This document shows, piece after piece, positions 21,979 to 50,250 of a DNA stretch of 64,000 nt (position 1 is the stretch's first letter; every line of letters begins with the position of its first letter). Both the position numbers and the translations under genes were made by a program. The notes under the pieces are model-generated. The model was not told where the DNA came from, made no database searches, and worked only from the letters and a program-made list of their open reading frames with translations. The stretch lies in IMG/VR virus record IMGVR_UViG_3300017763_004709, positions 11,829-75,828 of that record. One strand, 5' to 3'. Origin of the DNA: a virus.

Positions 21979-22262
21979 TAAGATTCTCCTTCATCTTCAA
22001 ATAATTCTAGTTGTTTACTTTTAATCTTACTTAAATAAGTTTTGGTAAGTATATCTCCCGCCTTGTCTAGAAGGTGAGCAGCCATATCTACAAATTCGGG
22101 TCTTAAAGCTAATCCCTTTTTAGTAGGGAACCAGTTACCCGTATCTCCGTCTCTCATATACTCTCTTATATGAATATACTCTTGACCTCTAAATTCGTTT
22201 ATAGTTATTTTTATAGCTTTATCTTCTGTTATATAACCTACAAAACCTAAATCAATTTCCAT
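21978..22262 (-). CDS. PC4/p15-like ssDNA-binding protein
   Basis: INEFRGQEYIHIREY...W.PTKKGLAL. Confidence 0.88.
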   Translation of the reverse strand: MEIDLGFVGYITEDKAIKITINEFRGQEYIHIREYMRDGDTGNWFPTKKGLALRPEFVDMAAHLLDKAGDILTKTYLSKIKSKQLELFEDEGES

Positions 22263-23385
22263 GAACTCTTTTTATCCTTGGATAATCATGTATCTTTTTA
22301 AGAGCATGATTATACATAATTCCTGCTTCTTCCCAGTTTTTTATTTTACTACTTTTAGGAATAGCACGTTTCTTCGTATCGTATAACATTTTCATTTTAG
22401 ATATCAAGTCTTGAACTTCTGGTTCTACTAACCAAGTATGAGAGCCCATTAAGTTAAAGCTATCTCCTGGTTTCCCTGCAAAAATATTATTAATGTCTAC
22501 GATTTTTTGAGAAGACTTTATTTTATAATCTGTAACAAATTCATCAGTACAGCCTCCTCCAGTAACTAAAGGAATAGTCCCACAAGCTATTGCTTCTTGA
22601 ACAGGCATTCCAAAACCCTCTCCTCTATAAGGATGAACTAGTACGTCCACACTTCTATATAAATCTGCCATATCTTTTTCTGAATAAGGATCATCTATAT
22701 AAGTTATTTTAGCTAAGCTATTAGTGTACTGTAGTTTAATTAATTGTTCTTGTAAGGCTGTTTTTCCATAAACTTGAGGGGTGTCTTTTACTATAAGCTC
22801 TACATTATCTTCTTTTTTAAATGTATTAGCCCATGCTTGTAGTAATATATCAAAACCTTTTCTATATTGATCACATCCTACAAATAAGAAAGTATATTTA
22901 TCTCTTTTAGGAGTATCTCTGTCTACATAAAAGATACTTGGATCATATCCTATAGGTATACAAAAAAGCCTTTCTGGGTTAATACCGCCTTCTTGATATA
23001 CTGCACCTGTCCAGCGAGTAAAAGTAATAAGAGCATCTGCAAAAGTTTCAAATTTGTATTGCCACTCAAAAGGCACTTTTGTAAACTCCCAAGGCTGTAT
23101 ATATACTACTTTTGTATCATTAGAATGAGGCCATCTCCATATAGGAGGATAACTATGCCTTATTTGTATATCAGGAACTACAGCAGTCTCCTCTTTAGGA
23201 AGTAAATTTTCTAAGTTTTGTAATGTTTCTTGGCTAAGTTTAGCCTCTGAAGTAAAACTATCTATAGGAGAAATAACTACATTGTTATACTTAGATAATT
23301 CAATAGCTAAGTACCTATTTACAATAGACAAAGAGTGGTTATCATAAAATTTACCTATAATTTCTAAATTCATATTATTTTGCAT
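22252..23385 (-). CDS. GT-B glycosyltransferase (GT4-like)
   Basis: FLFVG...RKG.D, PYRGEGFGMPVQEAIACG. Confidence 0.9.
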   Translation of the reverse strand: MQNNMNLEIIGKFYDNHSLSIVNRYLAIELSKYNNVVISPIDSFTSEAKLSQETLQNLENLLPKEETAVVPDIQIRHSYPPIWRWPHSNDTKVVYIQPWEFTKVPFEWQYKFETFADALITFTRWTGAVYQEGGINPERLFCIPIGYDPSIFYVDRDTPKRDKYTFLFVGCDQYRKGFDILLQAWANTFKKEDNVELIVKDTPQVYGKTALQEQLIKLQYTNSLAKITYIDDPYSEKDMADLYRSVDVLVHPYRGEGFGMPVQEAIACGTIPLVTGGGCTDEFVTDYKIKSSQKIVDINNIFAGKPGDSFNLMGSHTWLVEPEVQDLISKMKMLYDTKKRAIPKSSKIKNWEEAGIMYNHALKKIHDYPRIKRVHGN

Positions 23386-27721: not shown

Positions 27722-28314
27722 TTTGTTACTTTTTTTCTTGAGAAATTTCTATATTCATCAATAATACTTATAATATAAGGATCTAAAGGTTCTATACCTT
27801 CTCTTACAAATTTTTCTATTTCGTCTTTTTGATTATTATTAAAGTTACTTTTATAAATAGAAGAACGATATACTCCTCTTGTTTTAGAAGGATTACCAAA
27901 CACTTTAGAGAAAGGTTTTACATCTTTTATTATGGGCGAAAATGTTCCTATAAAAGAATGACTACCTACTGTAGAGTAATTTTGTATATGAGCATTATAC
28001 TCTATATAAACATTATTTTGAATAACACTATGAAAACCTAAGTAACAACAACCTGTTATAGTATTATTATTGCCTATCAAAGTATCACTATTAATAGTAG
28101 TACTTGGGCCTATATAATTGCCACTTCCTATAACAGTATTCTCTCTGTAACCAGTTGCGCAGTTAATAACACATGCTGAAAGTATGGTATTGTTTTTACC
28201 TAGAGATATTCCATATTTATCATCTTTTACTAAAAACACCACTGAAGGGTCAATAGTATTAGAAGAATCTATAGAAAATTCTATAATAGCTTTGGAGGCA
28301 GAGTATACTTTCAT
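27718..28314 (-). CDS. hexapeptide-repeat (LpxA-like) acyltransferase
   Basis: IG.N hexapeptide repeats; KDV.PF..V.GNP. Confidence 0.75.
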   Translation of the reverse strand: MKVYSASKAIIEFSIDSSNTIDPSVVFLVKDDKYGISLGKNNTILSACVINCATGYRENTVIGSGNYIGPSTTINSDTLIGNNNTITGCCYLGFHSVIQNNVYIEYNAHIQNYSTVGSHSFIGTFSPIIKDVKPFSKVFGNPSKTRGVYRSSIYKSNFNNNQKDEIEKFVREGIEPLDPYIISIIDEYRNFSRKKVTK

Positions 28315-28336
28315 AGTGCTATTCAAAATAATGAGT

Positions 28337-28595
28337 GTCACTTTTTCTGTTGCTAGGCAAGTGACCAGCCCCCTTAATCATGCAGCTAGTGCGTAATTAG
28401 ATGGTGCAAAGTTATCGTTTGCGTTTGTAGTTTTTGGCTGAATATCGTAGGCCAACACGGTAATCTACTCTCATCTCTACACACCTGTCGATCCTAGTTC
28501 AGCCCCATAAGAAACACACTTATCTTAATGTGTTTATGGTGGAGCTGTCGGGTACTGCCCCCGAGTCCAGTATGTATGTTGAATTGTATCAACGA
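28337..28595 (-). ncRNA. ssrA: tmRNA, circularly permuted two-piece (alphaproteobacterial type); tag ANDNFAPSNYALAA
   Basis: Acceptor piece ...GGACTCGGGGGCAGTACCCGACAGCTCCACCA (ends 28537) precedes a 30-nt spacer and the coding piece GGGGCTGAA..GGATCGAC (starts 28506); tag ORF 28422-28378; PK1 and terminal pseudoknot pair; outer ends approximate. Confidence 0.95.
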
Positions 28596-28633
28596 TTACA
28601 AAAAAGAGGTTTAAAACGATAGATGTATCGAAG

Positions 28634-28753
28634 TTAGTGACCCCTTAATTCCTTATTTATTTTTTGTCTTGTTTTCTTATTAGATAGTTGTTTTAGTTTC
28701 TTTTTCCATGCCCTAGATAGTGCATGAGGTATTACGCCGTTTTTAGGATTCAT
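28634..28753 (-). CDS. 39-aa basic protein (absent from ORF track)
   Basis: MNPKNGVIPHALSRAWKKKLKQLSNKKTRQKINKELRGH; AGGAG SD. Confidence 0.5.
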   Translation of the reverse strand: MNPKNGVIPHALSRAWKKKLKQLSNKKTRQKINKELRGH

Positions 28754-46073: not shown

Positions 46074-46580
46074 ATGAAAATAATAAATTTTGAAAATAAA
46101 CAGTATCCTGCTTTTCAAGCTACTGGAAATGCAGCTAGATTTGCTATTCCTTTTGCTAAAGAGCTTATAGGATTAGACAAAGTAGGTTATGATATAGGGT
46201 GTATGAAAAAAGAATGGTCTTATCCAGGGTCTATAAATATAGACATAGATATAGACGACCCTTGGGACGCCTATAATTTACCTGATTTAGAAGTAGATTA
46301 TATATTTTCTTCTCACTGCTTAGAGCACTTGCCTGATTGGGTAGGAGCTTTAGACTATTGGAATTCTAAACTAAAAATAGGAGGAATTTTATTTTTGTAT
46401 CTACCTCATAAGAGTCAGAAATACTGGAATCCTTGGAACAATAGAAAACATTATCACATGTTTTCTTCTTCACAGTTTAATAAATATTTTAAAAGTAAAA
46501 GTAAAAACTGGACTAATACATTTGTAACAAAAGGTCATGATTTAAATAACAGCTTCTACTGTGTAGCAAAAAAATACTGA
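46074..46580 (+). CDS. class I SAM-dependent methyltransferase
   Basis: DIGC, DYIFSSHCLEH, LK.GG.LFLYLP. Confidence 0.88.
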   Translation: MKIINFENKQYPAFQATGNAARFAIPFAKELIGLDKVGYDIGCMKKEWSYPGSINIDIDIDDPWDAYNLPDLEVDYIFSSHCLEHLPDWVGALDYWNSKLKIGGILFLYLPHKSQKYWNPWNNRKHYHMFSSSQFNKYFKSKSKNWTNTFVTKGHDLNNSFYCVAKKY

Positions 46581-46642
46581 TAGTATTTGCATAGATACTT
46601 ATTAAATGTTAATATATAATATAGCATTTAATGAGGTAACTA

Positions 46643-46939
46643 ATGTACGCAGTGAAAAAACTAAATAAAAGCAATTTTGAAGTTGTTAATATATTAGAAG
46701 AGCCTAAAACTTACAAAGTTAGTAAAAATACACAAGGACACTATCAGTGTGATTGTATGGGTTTTGCTAGACAAAAAAATAAATTAGAACACAAGCATTG
46801 TTTAATGGTACAAGTTCTAGAAGATTTAGACTATGATAGCTTTGTGCTTGATACAGATAGAGAATGGAAAATTGTATCAGCACATACTATGCAAGATGCT
46901 ATAGACAGTATAGAATCTTTTATTGATAGCTTAATGTGA
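46643..46939 (+). CDS. SWIM-type zinc finger protein
   Basis: Y.V......CDC.GF.......HKH. Confidence 0.6.
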   Translation: MYAVKKLNKSNFEVVNILEEPKTYKVSKNTQGHYQCDCMGFARQKNKLEHKHCLMVQVLEDLDYDSFVLDTDREWKIVSAHTMQDAIDSIESFIDSLM

Positions 46940-46949
46940 AGAGGAAAAT

Positions 46950-47282
46950 ATGCTAGCTAATATTACTAATCTAAACACAGAATATTCTGATTGCACTATT
47001 TTAATAGATCCAAGCGATTCTTGGACTACAGATAAGACTATATCTGTTCTATTGTCAAGACTTTTAGCTAACTACTCAGAGTATTGCGAAGAATATCCTA
47101 GCGATTTTTCTTCTTTAGAAGAGTGGAAAATGGAAGTTAACTATCATTCAGATTGTTTAAGTGAGTATTTTTATTGTCAAGAATCAGATAATGCTGAGTT
47201 TGAAGCAATTCTTAAAGACACTAAAAAGTCTTTTAAATTTATCTCTGAATATTTAGAAGATTTATGGATAGTTAACGAATGA
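46950..47282 (+). CDS. hypothetical protein
   Basis: ORF with GAGG SD. Confidence 0.6.
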   Translation: MLANITNLNTEYSDCTILIDPSDSWTTDKTISVLLSRLLANYSEYCEEYPSDFSSLEEWKMEVNYHSDCLSEYFYCQESDNAEFEAILKDTKKSFKFISEYLEDLWIVNE

Positions 47283-47995
47283 CTGCTATAATATTTGATG
47301 TAGACGGTACTCTTACAGACCCTAGAGAAAAAATAGATCCTTTCTTTTTACAAGAACTTGTAGGATTATCTATGTCTTATAGTATTTATTTAGCTACAGG
47401 AAGCGACTACGTTAAAACAGAAGAACAACTAGATACGTGGTTTTTAGAGAACATAATTTCCTATAGTTTTAATTGCTCAGGAAACTCTGTATGGCAAAAA
47501 GGACAAGAAGTATATAGAGAAGACTGGATTACTCCTACCGAAGTATTAGATTGGCTTAACAGTGAACTAACTGAAAGTACTTTTGAACACAAGACAGGGT
47601 TTCATTTTGACAAAAGACCTGGTATGCTAAACTTTAGTATAGTTGGAAGAAATGCTACACCTCTACAAAGAGTATTATATTCTGAGTTTGACAAAAACAC
47701 TAAAGAAAGGTTAAACTTATCTATAAAGTTTAATAATGCTTTTAAAGATAAATATAATATTACAGCACAGATTGCCGGAAGAACTGGTTTTGACATATAT
47801 AGAGACGGTAAGGATAAGAGTCAAATATTAGATTACTTTGAAAATATTCCTATATTATTTTTTGGCGATGACACTCAAGAGGGCGGTAATGATCATACGT
47901 TAGCTAAAGCTATCGAAGAAAGAAACAATAAAGAAGATAAAGTATTTAAAGTATCTTCTCCTTCTGAAACAAGATATTTAGTTTCTCTTCTTTAA
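47279..47995 (+). CDS. HAD-IIB phosphomannomutase (PMM/Sec53-type)
   Basis: FDVDGTLT.PR, TGSD, R.GMLNFS.VGR, FFGD...GGND. Confidence 0.85.
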   Translation: MTAIIFDVDGTLTDPREKIDPFFLQELVGLSMSYSIYLATGSDYVKTEEQLDTWFLENIISYSFNCSGNSVWQKGQEVYREDWITPTEVLDWLNSELTESTFEHKTGFHFDKRPGMLNFSIVGRNATPLQRVLYSEFDKNTKERLNLSIKFNNAFKDKYNITAQIAGRTGFDIYRDGKDKSQILDYFENIPILFFGDDTQEGGNDHTLAKAIEERNNKEDKVFKVSSPSETRYLVSLL

Positions 47996-48011
47996 ACACT
48001 TGTTTAAGATG

Positions 48012-48145
48012 AGGGGCTGGTCAAGTGATGCCAGTAAACCATAAAAATCACTATGGGTTATGTTAAACTATCCTATCCGAAAAAAATTGTTTAACCACTA
48101 TTCTGCTAGTGTAACTAAGTCCGTTATTTCGGAAACGGCAGCAGA
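48012..48145 (+). ncRNA. candidate structured ncRNA 1 (five hairpins, three tertiary pairings)
   Basis: Intergenic; complementary loops AGTGAT/ATCACT, TCCGAAA/TTTCGGA, TCTGC/GCAGA. Confidence 0.6.
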
Positions 48146-48146
48146 T

Positions 48147-48190
48147 AAAAAGGCGTTCTAACTTATAGTAAGAGCGCCTTTTTACTTTTT
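48147..48190 (+). terminator. intrinsic terminator (A- and T-flanked)
   Basis: AAAAAGGCGTTCT/AGAGCGCCTTTTT. Confidence 0.8.
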
Positions 48191-48210
48191 TAATTATAAG
48201 GAAAATATAA

Positions 48211-48789
48211 ATGTCTACCGTACATAAGATATTAAAAAATGCGTTAAAAAACATGAACTATGTAGGCTCCGGGTGTTATGCTGCTGCTTTTGATAGTAAT
48301 AAAGAAATAGTTAAAATAGGAGCAGATATATTTGACCCTTATTTATATTATCTAAGAGAAATAAAATCATTAAAAAATACACATTTTCCTAAATTTCATA
48401 GTTTATATGTAGATAACTATAATGAGTTTTATACTGTAAAGCTAGAGAAACTATATCCTTTAAATGATAAACAACTTAAAGATTACGAACAACTATACGA
48501 CTGGGCAGTAAAAGGAGAAGATAAACCTTGTTGGGCTAGTGAAGAGCTAGAAGAAGCTGTTAATAAGATAGTAGATTTAGCAGATGTAATATCTTTACAA
48601 CCTTCAGAGGATTTAGAGTATGAAGGGCAGACAGGAGATTGTAGATTAGACCTTCATGAAGCCAATGTAATGAGTCGATCTGATGGGACATTAGTATTTA
48701 CAGATCCTCTTTCAGATGCCCAAATGTTTGATGCCCCTGCTATAGAAGAGTGGATAGATGACTATCTTTATTATACCAATAAAAAGTAG
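48211..48789 (+). CDS. protein kinase, T7 gp0.7-like
   Basis: GSGCYAAAF, VKIG...D, YTV.LE.L, DLHEANVM, TDP. Confidence 0.75.
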   Translation: MSTVHKILKNALKNMNYVGSGCYAAAFDSNKEIVKIGADIFDPYLYYLREIKSLKNTHFPKFHSLYVDNYNEFYTVKLEKLYPLNDKQLKDYEQLYDWAVKGEDKPCWASEELEEAVNKIVDLADVISLQPSEDLEYEGQTGDCRLDLHEANVMSRSDGTLVFTDPLSDAQMFDAPAIEEWIDDYLYYTNKK

Positions 48790-48832
48790 TTTTATTCTTG
48801 CTTATTACTTATTTTAATAGTATTATGATTAT

Positions 48833-48985
48833 ATGATGAAAAAACAAATAAAATTTAATATAAAATCTGTAGAAGATTTACATAAACAAATGAATGAGTG
48901 GGTAGATGCAAATCTACCTATAGAAGAGATAAATAATACTAACTTAGCGGCTACAATGCTAAAAAGTATAGGAATAAAAGTATAG
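48833..48985 (+). CDS. 50-aa hypothetical protein (absent from ORF track)
   Basis: ATG 7 nt after TTGCTT-17-TATTAT; stop overlaps first base of tRNA-Arg. Confidence 0.5.
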   Translation: MMKKQIKFNIKSVEDLHKQMNEWVDANLPIEEINNTNLAATMLKSIGIKV

Positions 48986-49061
48986 GTCTCTTAGCTCAGC
49001 TGGATAGAGCAAGTGCCTTCTAAGCACTAGGTCTCAGGTTCGAATCCTGAAGAGATCACCA
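48985..49061 (+). tRNA. tRNA-Arg(UCU)
   Basis: Cloverleaf, CTTCTAA loop, CCA encoded. Confidence 0.95.
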
Positions 49062-49242
49062 AGATAGGCAAAGGGGAAAGCCTAGCGATTTCGCTAAACG
49101 TACCCAACAAAGGTCCTAGACATGGAAGAGTGGCCCTCTAGTCTAGTCCGGTATAAGCACTGGTACCGCATAACCCAGTCGGTTGCTGCATACGTCAAAT
49201 GCAGATACGTGGGGAGGCACTGCAGAAAGCCTCCCCACCGAT
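49062..49242 (+). ncRNA. candidate structured ncRNA 2 directly after tRNA-Arg
   Basis: GC-rich island with about seven stems and an H-type pseudoknot. Confidence 0.65.
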
Positions 49243-49278
49243 TCTATAGAGTTATATCTATGTAACAAAGGATACACT

Positions 49279-49437
49279 ATGAGAAGAGGTACTAAGCCTA
49301 ACCCCATAGATTATATTAAAGTAAGAATAGATCTACTACGTGAAGAAAAGAAAAAAAACGAAGATAATACTGCTCACTTAGTATTAGATAAAGCAATTTA
49401 TGAGTTAAGTGTTGTTTTAGATCTTCTAATAAGATAG
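49279..49437 (+). CDS. 52-aa hypothetical protein
   Basis: AAGGA SD; start MRRGTK rather than track start 49183. Confidence 0.6.
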   Translation: MRRGTKPNPIDYIKVRIDLLREEKKKNEDNTAHLVLDKAIYELSVVLDLLIR

Positions 49438-49449
49438 TAGTTATACTAT

Positions 49450-49524
49450 TCCGGCGTAGCTCAGTGGTAGAGCAGTTGACTGTTAATCAATTGGTCGTAG
49501 GTTCGACCCCTACCGCCGGAGCCA
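49450..49524 (+). tRNA. tRNA-Asn(GUU)
   Basis: Cloverleaf, CTGTTAA loop, GCCA end. Confidence 0.95.
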
Positions 49525-49529
49525 AATTA

Positions 49530-49605
49530 GGGTCTGTAGCTTAGTGGTTAAAGCTGCCCGCTCATAACGGGTAGATCGTAGGTTCGAATCCTACCGGACC
49601 CACCA
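49530..49605 (+). tRNA. tRNA with CAU anticodon, probably Ile2 (lysidine type)
   Basis: G1-C72 paired so not an initiator; CCCG-CTCATAA-CGGG arm resembles Ile2. Confidence 0.88.
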
Positions 49606-49608
49606 TAT

Positions 49609-49680
49609 ATGGGTGAAGTGTTAATGGTTGCACATCGGATTCCAAATCCGAAAGACAGAGTTCGATTCTTTGCACCTATG
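49609..49680 (+). tRNA. tRNA-Trp(CCA)
   Basis: ATGGGTG/CACCTAT acceptor, TCGGA-TTCCAAA-TCCGA arm, GTTCGATTC; followed by CCCA. Confidence 0.85.
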
Positions 49681-49697
49681 CCCAAAGGAATATTAGT

Positions 49698-49922
49698 ATG
49701 TATACAGTAGAATTTGATCATGATGAAGTAATTATAACTATATTAGACGACTCAGGAAGTTTACCAGATCTAATAATAAATAGTTATGACGATGGAGTAT
49801 ACATTACTCAAATGGATGAAGATGGTGATTATGATGATATACTTAACATAACTCCAGAAATGTGGCAAGAGTTGATTTTAGCTATAAACAGCTCAGAAGG
49901 AGCTTATGTTATAAAGAGATAA
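49698..49922 (+). CDS. acidic hypothetical protein inside the tRNA island
   Basis: ORF with AAGGA SD. Confidence 0.7.
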   Translation: MYTVEFDHDEVIITILDDSGSLPDLIINSYDDGVYITQMDEDGDYDDILNITPEMWQELILAINSSEGAYVIKR

Positions 49923-50006
49923 GCCCGCGTGATGGAATGGTAGACATAACAGACTTAAAATCTGTGGCCGCAAGGCGTGCCGGTTCGAGTCCGGCCGCGG
50001 GTACCA
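49923..50006 (+). tRNA. tRNA-Leu(UAA)
   Basis: Type II cloverleaf with variable arm, CTTAAAA loop, CCA encoded. Confidence 0.95.
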
Positions 50007-50010
50007 ACCA

Positions 50011-50147
50011 GCGTGACAACTACGCACTCAAATATACTCCGGACTCTGTATTGGTTGAGAAATAGTTGTACTTGTAAGTCGTACTTTGTAGAGTATTTAC
50101 TTATTATCTGAGGGGGTTATATAAGTAAACATTCCAAAGAGCGACCA
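50011..50147 (+). ncRNA. candidate structured ncRNA 3 ending in ACCA
   Basis: Pseudoknot domain plus long rod between tRNA-Leu and the terminator. Confidence 0.55.
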
Positions 50148-50184
50148 CAGCCCTCCTAGTTTTTTATACTAGGAGGGCTGTTTT
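50147..50184 (+). terminator. intrinsic terminator closing the tRNA island
   Basis: ACAGCCCTCCTAGT/ACTAGGAGGGCTGT 14-bp stem plus T-run. Confidence 0.88.
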
Positions 50185-50250
50185 ACATCTAAACTTAATA
50201 AAATAAAATTTAACATTAGTCATAAATAATGATACTATAGAGTATATAAA

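Follow-up and report, generated by a model that had tools for sequence, protein, structure and literature searches.

A covarying, pseudoknot-rich RNA upstream of a T7 gp0.7-like kinase gene: a new RNA family and candidate attenuating leader in one phage lineage

Directly upstream of a kinase gene in an IMG/VR virus record of 75.8 kb, which is estimated to be 67% complete and of which a stretch of 64,000 nucleotides was analysed here (the window), lies a short segment that a sequence-only reading had described as a structured RNA of five hairpins, interlocked by three loop pairings and followed by a terminator. This locus raises the question of whether such an RNA is real and, if so, whether it governs the kinase gene that follows it, acts on the kinase itself, or serves a purpose of its own. 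The reading that we consider the best, with a probability of roughly 40%, is that the element is a leader and attenuator which gates read-through into the T7 gp0.7-like kinase gene.

The genome is that of a large lytic-type phage, with genes for ribonucleotide reductase, a family A DNA polymerase, a DnaB-like helicase, an NAD-dependent ligase and baseplate proteins, a permuted alpha-type tmRNA and six tRNA genes, five of which are clustered at 48985-50006. The element is present in a single copy in the window. On its 5' side, the open reading frames at 46643-47995 form an operon that ends with a phosphomannomutase-like gene of the HAD family (the PMM-like gene), and on its 3' side lies the gene that had been labelled a kinase (Table 1). 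Two lines of evidence agree on this label: the open reading frame matches the PHROG family of T7 gp0.7-type kinases (E 6e-16), a family which carries the annotation of an inhibitor of host transcription, and its AlphaFold model (pLDDT 75.5) matches aminoglycoside phosphotransferases and eukaryote-type protein kinases. The downstream gene is accordingly predicted to encode a protein-kinase-like fold; a PDB sequence search with the kinase profile gave no match.

Table 1. Features of the element and its surroundings, in window coordinates
Feature	Position	Strand	Basis or remark
Nearest upstream promoter motif	46587-46615	+	Lies at the head of the operon whose last members are the PMM-like gene and the RNA
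PMM-like gene, HAD family (phosphomannomutase-like), 5' of the element	47279-47995	+	Pfam PF03332, E 5e-24
P0 hairpin, ~13 pairs, directly 5' of P1	47983-48015	+	Folds in 5 of 5 types
P1 hairpin, GCUGG/CCAGU, G-U closing pair, 10-nt loop	48016-20/48031-35	+	Invariant in 8 of 8 distinct sequences, 100% paired
PK1, P1 loop, AGUGAU/AUCACU	48024-29/48047-52	+	H-type pseudoknot; A-rich connecting loop, 11 nt
Hairpin 2 of the sequence-only reading, AACCATA/TATGGGTT	48037-59	+	Not conserved as a helix
P3 hairpin, GTTAAAC/GTTTAAC, 7 bp	48062-68/48089-95	+	Invariant stem, 100% paired
Kissing loop, P3 loop TCCGAAA/P5 loop TTTCGGA, 6-7 bp	48076-82/48127-33	+	Duplex energies
P4 hairpin, CACTA/TAGTG, 4-5 bp, 6-nt loop	48096-100/48107-11	+	Covariation
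PK2, P4 loop TCTGC/3' tail GCAGA, encloses P5	48102-06/48141-45	+	Covariation; RNAalifold
P5 hairpin, CCGTT/AACGG, 5 bp, 8-nt loop	48121-25/48134-38	+	Covariation
Intrinsic terminator, G+C-cored hairpin and T-run	Stem 48147-48183, T-run to 48191	+	Fold about -21 kcal/mol
Kinase gene, 192 aa, 3' of the element	RBS (AAGGA) and ORF 48198-48789; ATG 48211	+	PHROG 15752
Next promoter motif, TTGCTT-N17-TATTAT, directly after the kinase gene	48798-48826	+	Motif match

In scans guided by protein or by pattern, the element turned up in nine further IMG/VR contigs and several metagenome contigs, ~13 contigs in all, which fall into five sequence types: that of the window (with minor variants L004 and L062), L006/L007, L049, L050/L060 and L058. 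The types are well diverged, the kinase being 76% identical to that of the window in L006 and 48% identical in L049 and L050, and a model built from the window and L006 types only still scores the RNAs of the distant types at 70-86 bits.

Compared across these types, P0, P1, P3, P4 and P5 make up an RNA of ~165 nt that is locked by three long-range pairings. Every motif of the sequence-only reading was found in its place, and four of its five hairpins (P1, P3, P4 and P5) stand, the exception being hairpin 2, whose strands AACCAUA/UAUGGGUU pair in the window type and form only 2-3 pairs in L006, L049, L050 and L058. Since hairpin 2 collapses outside the window type, P1 and PK1 are better read together as an H-type pseudoknot, in which the supposed loop of hairpin 2 is the 3' strand that pairs with the P1 loop. 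RNAalifold offers an alternative to P1 that pairs 48015-18 with 48056-59. The start of the structured RNA must be moved upstream, as P1 is preceded by a further hairpin, P0. In the window, the 5' strand of P0 takes in the final codons of the PMM-like gene and its stop codon, and the 3' strand is the invariant AUGAGGG; the 5' strand varies by type (UUCUC.., CCCU.., CCUUGU.., CCUCAU..) yet always pairs, and minimum-free-energy folding of the upstream 46 nt returns the same hairpin in each type, at -8.4 to -14.2 kcal/mol. The loop of P3, which carries one strand of the kissing interaction, is 20 nt long and is pyrimidine-rich and then A-rich.

The three loop pairings are kept in all five types, and they were recovered exactly in a shuffle test in which the stems were held fixed and the unpaired regions were shuffled (n=300). 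The best set of three disjoint region pairings joins the P1 loop to the following spacer, the P3 loop to the P5 loop and the P4 loop to the 3' tail, with a total of -22.1 kcal/mol against -12.3 +/- 2.4 for the shuffles, none of which reached it. The same three have the best mean duplex energies among all region pairs over the five types, the kissing loop being the best of all (mean -8.4 kcal/mol); it is the top duplex between unpaired regions in four types and the second in L049. Folding of the whole region on the + strand gave z = -3.6 relative to shuffles, a value to which the terminator contributes much.

Comparative evidence points the same way. In a model-fitted alignment of eight rows from the five types (A6), standard pairs fill 97.3% of cells, a share that falls to 23-43% once the 3' partners are shifted by 1-3 columns, and nine pairs change on both sides, as against 0-2 in the shifted controls; an alignment in hand register shows compensatory changes in 11 of 43 pairs, with 93% of cells canonical. 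Three of the six pairs of PK1 change on both sides, and in L049 its AGUGAU/AUCACU is replaced by GGUAAA/UUUACC within an 8-bp UGGUAAAG/CUUUACCA. Changes on both sides are also seen in two of four pairs of P4 (A-U/G-C and C-G/U-A) and in two pairs of PK2, which occurs as UCUGC/GCAGA, UCUAC/GUAGA, UCCGCA/UGUGGA and UCUACG/CGUAGA. The 5' strand of P5 is found as CCGUU, CCAUU, CCGCU and CCACU, each with a matching 3' strand, so that two pairs covary in all four combinations. The CCGAA/UUCGG core of the kissing loop is invariant, and its flanks show one change from U-A to C-G and one from A-U to G-U. In both P1/PK1 and P4/PK2 the hairpin loop pairs outside its own hairpin and does so with covariation, as is expected of H-type pseudoknots, and the structure predicted by RNAalifold itself contains PK1, P3, PK2 and P5. 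P1 and P3 never vary, so covariation neither supports nor contradicts them, and with only five independent types the covariation statistics are suggestive, below R-scape grade. The sequence-only reading had accepted that a lack of covariation would speak against it; covariation is present in PK1, P4, PK2, P5 and one pair of the kissing loop.

The G-U pairs of P1, P4, PK2 and the kissing loop, together with the T-run, fit only the + strand, which fixes the strand of the RNA. These features also bear on the idea that no RNA structure is involved, and that the ATG at 48009 opens a short peptide (MRGWS...) or that a site is conserved at the level of DNA, which we find barely credible. By-eye translation does give an ATG with an open frame of 11-25 codons in the window, L006, L049 and L050, and GTTAAAC/GTTTAAC is an inverted repeat, but no Shine-Dalgarno sequence precedes the ATG, which lies inside the P0 stem, and the length and C-terminus of the peptide differ in every type. 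Furthermore, AUGAGGGGCUGGU and GCCAGUAAAC are invariant even at would-be codon third positions, the changes that do occur are compensatory across distances of up to 40 nt, and the G-U pairs are strand-specific, none of which suits a conserved peptide or DNA site. A leader peptide was rejected on the missing Shine-Dalgarno sequence, the position of the ATG in P0, the varying length and the compensatory changes. A frameshift or read-through signal for the PMM-like gene was likewise rejected, as the UUUAAAC-like string at its stop codon is out of frame and the frames that would result are short and lack conservation.

The RNA had been said to belong to no recognised family, and a search of positions 48012-48145 against Rfam 15, at the gathering score as well as with E relaxed to 10, gave no match. 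Nor did any family match the corresponding stretch of L006, L049, L050 and L058; the only sub-threshold matches fall on the terminator, and literature searches returned no description of this RNA. The core of the sequence-only reading, a structured non-coding RNA outside the known families, is upheld by the presence of covariation together with these negative searches, and the element is a new RNA family. The kinds of RNA to which it may belong are all known, namely attenuating leaders, orphan RNAs of phage tRNA islands and RNA antidotes. To our knowledge, few well-supported RNA folds have three long-range pairings that covary, and most of those have proved to be riboswitches, ribozymes or self-assembling RNAs. 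At ~140-200 nt, the element is small enough for direct structural and biochemical work.

As possible roles the sequence-only reading had named a riboswitch or attenuator, a ribozyme and a stand-alone RNA. A self-cleaving ribozyme would cut the polycistronic transcript and thereby free the leader of the kinase message or set the 5' end of a small RNA. The fold is compact and contains several pseudoknots as well as long unpaired stretches that do not vary, which would suit a ribozyme, the invariant G-U pair that closes P1 adjoins the invariant AUGAGGG, and the position in the window type is intercistronic. However, no Rfam ribozyme family matches at E up to 10, and comparison by model with the hammerhead, twister, pistol, hatchet, HDV-like and glmS classes found no match; as a reading of topology, the strand order of P1/PK1 and P4/PK2 is unlike the nested double pseudoknot of HDV-like ribozymes. 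In three of the five types a promoter motif would already put the 5' end at P0, which would leave nothing to cut off, and a contig from an RNA library bridges 47899-48168, which weighs weakly against cleavage. We regard a ribozyme as very unlikely. The contig in question (X15) has a depth of 2, and a second one (X17), from a variant strain, covers 47700-48350; both come from metatranscriptomes and are weak evidence of transcription, being contigs, in which the ends and the strand of the transcript are not shown, and they may stem from carried-over DNA.

The RNA had been placed before a terminator and the kinase gene, and this order is correct: the terminator begins 1 nt 3' of PK2 in the window and 1-4 nt 3' of it across the types, and the kinase ATG follows 20 nt past the T-run in the window and ~20-35 nt past the terminator across the types, behind a ribosome-binding site. 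A terminator stands at the same place in every type, with sequences that are unrelated between types; a scanner for consensus terminators missed that of the window. Judged from the sequence, the gap between terminator and ATG would leave the kinase gene no room for a promoter of its own. These phages reuse a promoter-like motif, TTGC(t/a)n-N17-TAT(A/T)(T/C)T, the copies of which have an A+T-rich spacer in common. L049, L050 and L058 have a copy that stops 8-10 nt short of P0, from which transcription would begin at the foot of P0. The window and L006 types lack the spacer before P0 and have no dedicated promoter, the RNA being the tail of the upstream operon, and a scan for sigma-70 consensus sequences around the element in the window gave nothing convincing. 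Copies of the motif also follow the kinase gene in L049 and L050 (3595) and in L006 (3099), as in the window, and serve the tRNA genes. As the next promoter comes after the kinase gene, no gene other than that of the kinase would rely on polymerases that get past this terminator.

These observations suggest a one-gene unit, made up of a promoter (where present), the structured RNA, an intrinsic terminator and the kinase gene, which is the basis of the attenuating leader that we favour. The folded body would set how often the terminator is passed, by binding something conserved, for which a small molecule, the host RNA polymerase or another host factor are candidates. In this manner the phage would control the dose of a host-takeover kinase of the T7 gp0.7 type, and the terminated product would accumulate as a stable RNA of ~200 nt. 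Binding of such a partner would explain why unpaired nucleotides are invariant although the kinases are only 48% identical. In favour of an attenuating leader are the dedicated unit, delimited by the promoter motif, the terminator and the next promoter past the kinase gene; the co-occurrence of the RNA with close relatives of the kinase; unpaired nucleotides that stay invariant between phages with proteins diverged by half; and the fold itself, with its covariation and the outcome of the shuffle test. The element shares with terminating riboswitches, and with attenuators that depend on a protein or another factor, a promoter, a covarying pseudoknot-rich fold, a terminator, a ribosome-binding site, a single dependent gene and conserved unpaired nucleotides. 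It differs from them in that no competition between terminator and anti-terminator was found, in having neither a helix that closes the 5' and 3' ends nor a matching Rfam class, and in being found in one phage lineage.

The switch between the fold and the terminator is one that we infer. Of the hallmarks of terminator-type riboswitches, the covarying aptamer-like fold is seen and a 5' leader position is suggested by the order of promoter motif, terminator and gene, but a terminator and anti-terminator that share aptamer nucleotides were not found. When both strands of the terminator were searched against the aptamer with RNAduplex for an anti-terminator, the best site differed in each type; no conserved pairing competes with the terminator, and the defining switch of a terminator-type riboswitch is therefore missing. 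PK2 does not overlap the terminator stem, ending 1-4 nt before it, and the terminators seem strong and may act constitutively, in which case simple leakage would supply the kinase. Confinement to a single phage lineage with five types, with none in one genome each of 185,579 prokaryote species, would be unusual for a metabolite riboswitch. Also to be set against an attenuating leader are the synteny of the gene block, through which shared descent accounts in part for the position next to the kinase; the lack of a dedicated promoter in the window and L006 types, where the RNA is an operon tail; and the GOLLD and manA RNAs that relatives of this phage carry in the same tRNA island, RNAs which are not known to act in cis.

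A bolder version of the attenuating leader, which we advance tentatively and hold to be rather unlikely, is that the element represents a new class of sensing attenuator (a riboswitch or factor-sensing RNA), private to a marine/estuarine phage lineage, whose triple-locked fold reads a conserved signal of the host state and sets the amount of kinase. If it does sense a cellular signal, the element would be a phage-specific regulator of host takeover, and read-through into the single kinase gene provides a clear genetic read-out.

The put RNA of phage HK022 acts in cis to alter the response of polymerase to terminators and consists of two simple stem-loops of ~70 nt. A constitutive processive antiterminator of this kind, in which the nascent RNA binds polymerase and carries it through the terminator, would account for the position of the element, which like put is a phage RNA between a promoter and a terminator, and a conserved partner in the host, RNA polymerase for example, would suit its invariant nucleotides. 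Nevertheless, a terminator that is always overridden serves no purpose, and the next promoter comes right after the kinase gene, leaving no long operon to protect. The architecture also departs from the two stem-loops of put, with five helices, three long-range pairings and a terminator immediately adjacent. We consider this highly improbable, more so than a ribozyme.

Considering the question of which gene the RNA belongs with, its distribution is informative. Four pattern scans of IMG/VR (P5 with the kissing loop; the kissing pair; P1; P3) returned the same contigs and chance matches in coding DNA, and a metagenome scan yielded L058 as a new type, L062/L065 as a minor variant of that of the window, and two matches due to chance. 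The scan of prokaryotes, with one genome per species (185,579 species), gave eight chance matches, all at or below 18 bits (model R2), and neither a prophage copy nor an assignment to a host; in searches for DNA similarity among cultured phages the tRNA-Arg gene alone matches, the element giving chance matches only. The distribution is narrow, confined to one phage lineage. Every fetched locus with a close relative of the kinase (at least 48% identity to that of the window) also has the RNA, and the contigs of further kinase homologues, P0004-P0013 (39-51% identical), probably hold more variants of it. By contrast, 77 other phage contigs with a PMM-like gene (42-50% identical) contain neither the RNA nor the kinase, and no such RNA stands upstream of the nearest cultured homologues of the kinase, those of the Naomviridae (33% identical). 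The RNA goes with this kinase subfamily and not with the upstream PMM-like gene. The gene block is syntenic throughout the lineage, so the association of RNA and kinase is partly one of shared descent.

Strict co-occurrence of RNA and kinase in the loci fetched would also be expected if the RNA were a partner or antidote of the kinase protein, with the terminator setting an excess of RNA that binds the kinase and inactivates or directs it. The order of promoter, structured RNA, terminator and potentially toxic protein is the layout of ToxIN, and the PHROG family of the kinase is annotated as an inhibitor of host transcription. A further precedent is RCd22, an orphan abiF-motif RNA upstream of abiF, which neutralises its protein in cis as well as in trans (PMC12373285). 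With ToxI and RCd22 the element has in common a structured, pseudoknotted RNA, a terminator and then a gene for a potentially toxic protein, but it differs in having no tandem repeats, in the kinase fold of the protein and in lying in a lytic-type phage genome and not in a defence locus. Tandem Repeats Finder reported no tandem repeats in 47800-48400, and the protein is predicted to be a kinase and not an endoribonuclease of the ToxN or Abi type; thus, of the marks of a type III toxin-antitoxin system, the terminator between RNA and gene is present, and tandem repeats and an endoribonuclease of the ToxN, CptN or TenpN type are absent. In addition, conservation is much higher in the RNA than in the kinase (48% identity), whereas a co-evolving pair usually shows the reverse, and the Naomviridae homologues lack such an RNA upstream. 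We judge a kinase-binding RNA to be improbable; should it bind the kinase, the logic of RNA antidotes would be extended from nucleases to kinases.

A serious alternative to an attenuating leader, though one that we still think unlikely, is that the element is a stand-alone, trans-acting stable RNA of the phage tRNA island, like GOLLD, ROOL and manA. Such an RNA would be produced in large amounts, either from a promoter of its own or as the last part of the upstream operon, its 3' end would be set by the terminator, and the throttling of the kinase would be a side effect. In three types the promoter before P0 and the terminator after PK2 delimit a discrete RNA of ~210 nt, and the failure to find an anti-terminator sits well with such an RNA. 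The module lies inside tRNA islands in every relative; all types have tRNA genes within 200-800 nt on the downstream side, and L049 and L050 have them upstream as well. Small stable RNAs beside phage tRNA genes are familiar from T4 and T5, whose tRNA regions encode stable small RNAs that are processed from tRNA precursor transcripts; the element, unlike these, precedes a protein gene and is followed by a terminator of its own.

More specific neighbours are found in L049 and L050, which carry GOLLD and manA RNAs 1.5-3 kb downstream of the element: GOLLD at 5881-6326 in L049 and 4339-4785 in L050, and manA at 5168-5374 in L049, with a sub-threshold match at 4885-5088 in L050. GOLLD and ROOL are RNA-only cages held together by kissing loops, and a quaternary kissing loop of ROOL had earlier been taken, from covariation, for a tertiary contact (PMC12286853), while manA RNAs assemble as 8- to 60-mers (10.64898/2026.07.01.735769). 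Given the precedent of ROOL, covariation cannot tell intramolecular from intermolecular pairings here, and by analogy the loop pairings could be partly intermolecular, with the RNA self-assembling into oligomers, although all three are sterically plausible within one molecule. The element resembles these RNAs in its location in phage tRNA islands and in its covariation-supported kissing loop and pseudoknots. It differs in matching none of their models in sequence or structure, the consensus structure of manA being different, in being much smaller than GOLLD and ROOL, and in being tied to one protein gene that its terminator gates. It speaks against a stand-alone RNA that the element follows the kinase and not tRNA islands generally, as it was found neither in the 77 other phage contigs nor elsewhere in the collections scanned, and that the kinase depends fully on the terminator, which, if accidental, would be strange to see preserved in each of the five types. 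As the element lies in the same tRNA islands as GOLLD and manA, it may offer a tractable way into the function of these islands.

The 5′ domain of the new RNA admits two further pairings. RNAalifold prefers, as an alternative to P1 (the hairpin at 48016-48035), a pairing of 48015-48018 with 48056-48059, i.e. GGCU with a conserved GGU(U/C), in which the U-to-C change retains pairing with G and which encloses PK1 (the P1 loop paired with 48047-48052) as a plain hairpin. P1 and the alternative are both nearly invariant, and the latter may represent an additional conformation of the 5′ domain. The invariant GAGG(G) at 48011-48015 is also able to pair with a conserved CCU(U/C/A) in the loop of the P3 hairpin (48072-48075, UCCU in the window), with energies between -3.4 and -6.0 kcal/mol across the five sequence types; this predicted pairing would compete with the 5′-terminal hairpin P0.

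The invariant ATG at 48009 opens a short frame, MRGWS… (48009-48044), of 11-25 codons in the four types translated by eye, each of which ends it differently. Because this ATG lacks a Shine-Dalgarno sequence and lies within the P0 stem, the frame is probably not translated.

The new RNA ends an operon (46074-47995) comprising a methyltransferase gene, two small ORFs and the phosphomannomutase-like HAD gene, homologues of which are widespread in phage contigs (at least 405 confirmed, among 599 candidate stretches listed). A glycosyltransferase gene is encoded elsewhere in the window (22252-23385). Throughout this phage lineage a recurrent motif, TTGC(t/a)n, a 17-nt A+T-rich spacer (often ..TTATTTTAATAG) and TAT(A/T)(T/C)T, precedes many of the genes and tRNA clusters; judged by sequence, it looks like the early-promoter family of the lineage. 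Its copies in the window and in related contigs that carry the new RNA are tabulated below with two known structured RNAs, GOLLD and manA, which in the distant relatives L049 and L050 occupy the same tRNA island as the new RNA, 1.5-3 kb downstream of it; both are absent from the window's own contig.

Promoter-like motif copies and structured RNAs in the window and related contigs (manA gathering score, 55.2 bits)
Feature	Sequence	Position	Strand	Score
Promoter-like motif	window	46587, 48798, 41131
Promoter-like motif	window	28989, 21588, 1728	-
Promoter-like motif	L006	888, 3099
Promoter-like motif	L049	2733, 3595, 5462
Promoter-like motif	L050	2734, 3595, 3915
Promoter-like motif	L058	850
GOLLD RNA	L049	5881-6326		209 bits
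GOLLD RNA	L050	4339-4785		197 bits
manA RNA	L049	5168-5374		55.5 bits, just above gathering
manA RNA match	L050	4885-5088		43.9 bits, under gathering

After the tRNA-Leu gene of the window, 50064-50186 (+) resembles the Phe_leader model at a score below threshold (32.6 bits, E 0.008); this stretch adjoins another RNA candidate of the island from the sequence-only reading.

The window also encodes, at 28287-28640 (-), a permuted, two-piece tmRNA of alphaproteobacterial type (Rfam, 127 bits; ARAGORN) with the tag peptide ANDNFAPSNYALAA; a tmRNA is an unusual cargo in a phage, and its type is a hint that the host may be an alphaproteobacterium. L049 (4496-4570) and L054 (4866-4940) each have a tRNA, labelled Pyl by ARAGORN, whose anticodon CTA reads the amber stop codon; it is possibly a phage-borne suppressor tRNA.
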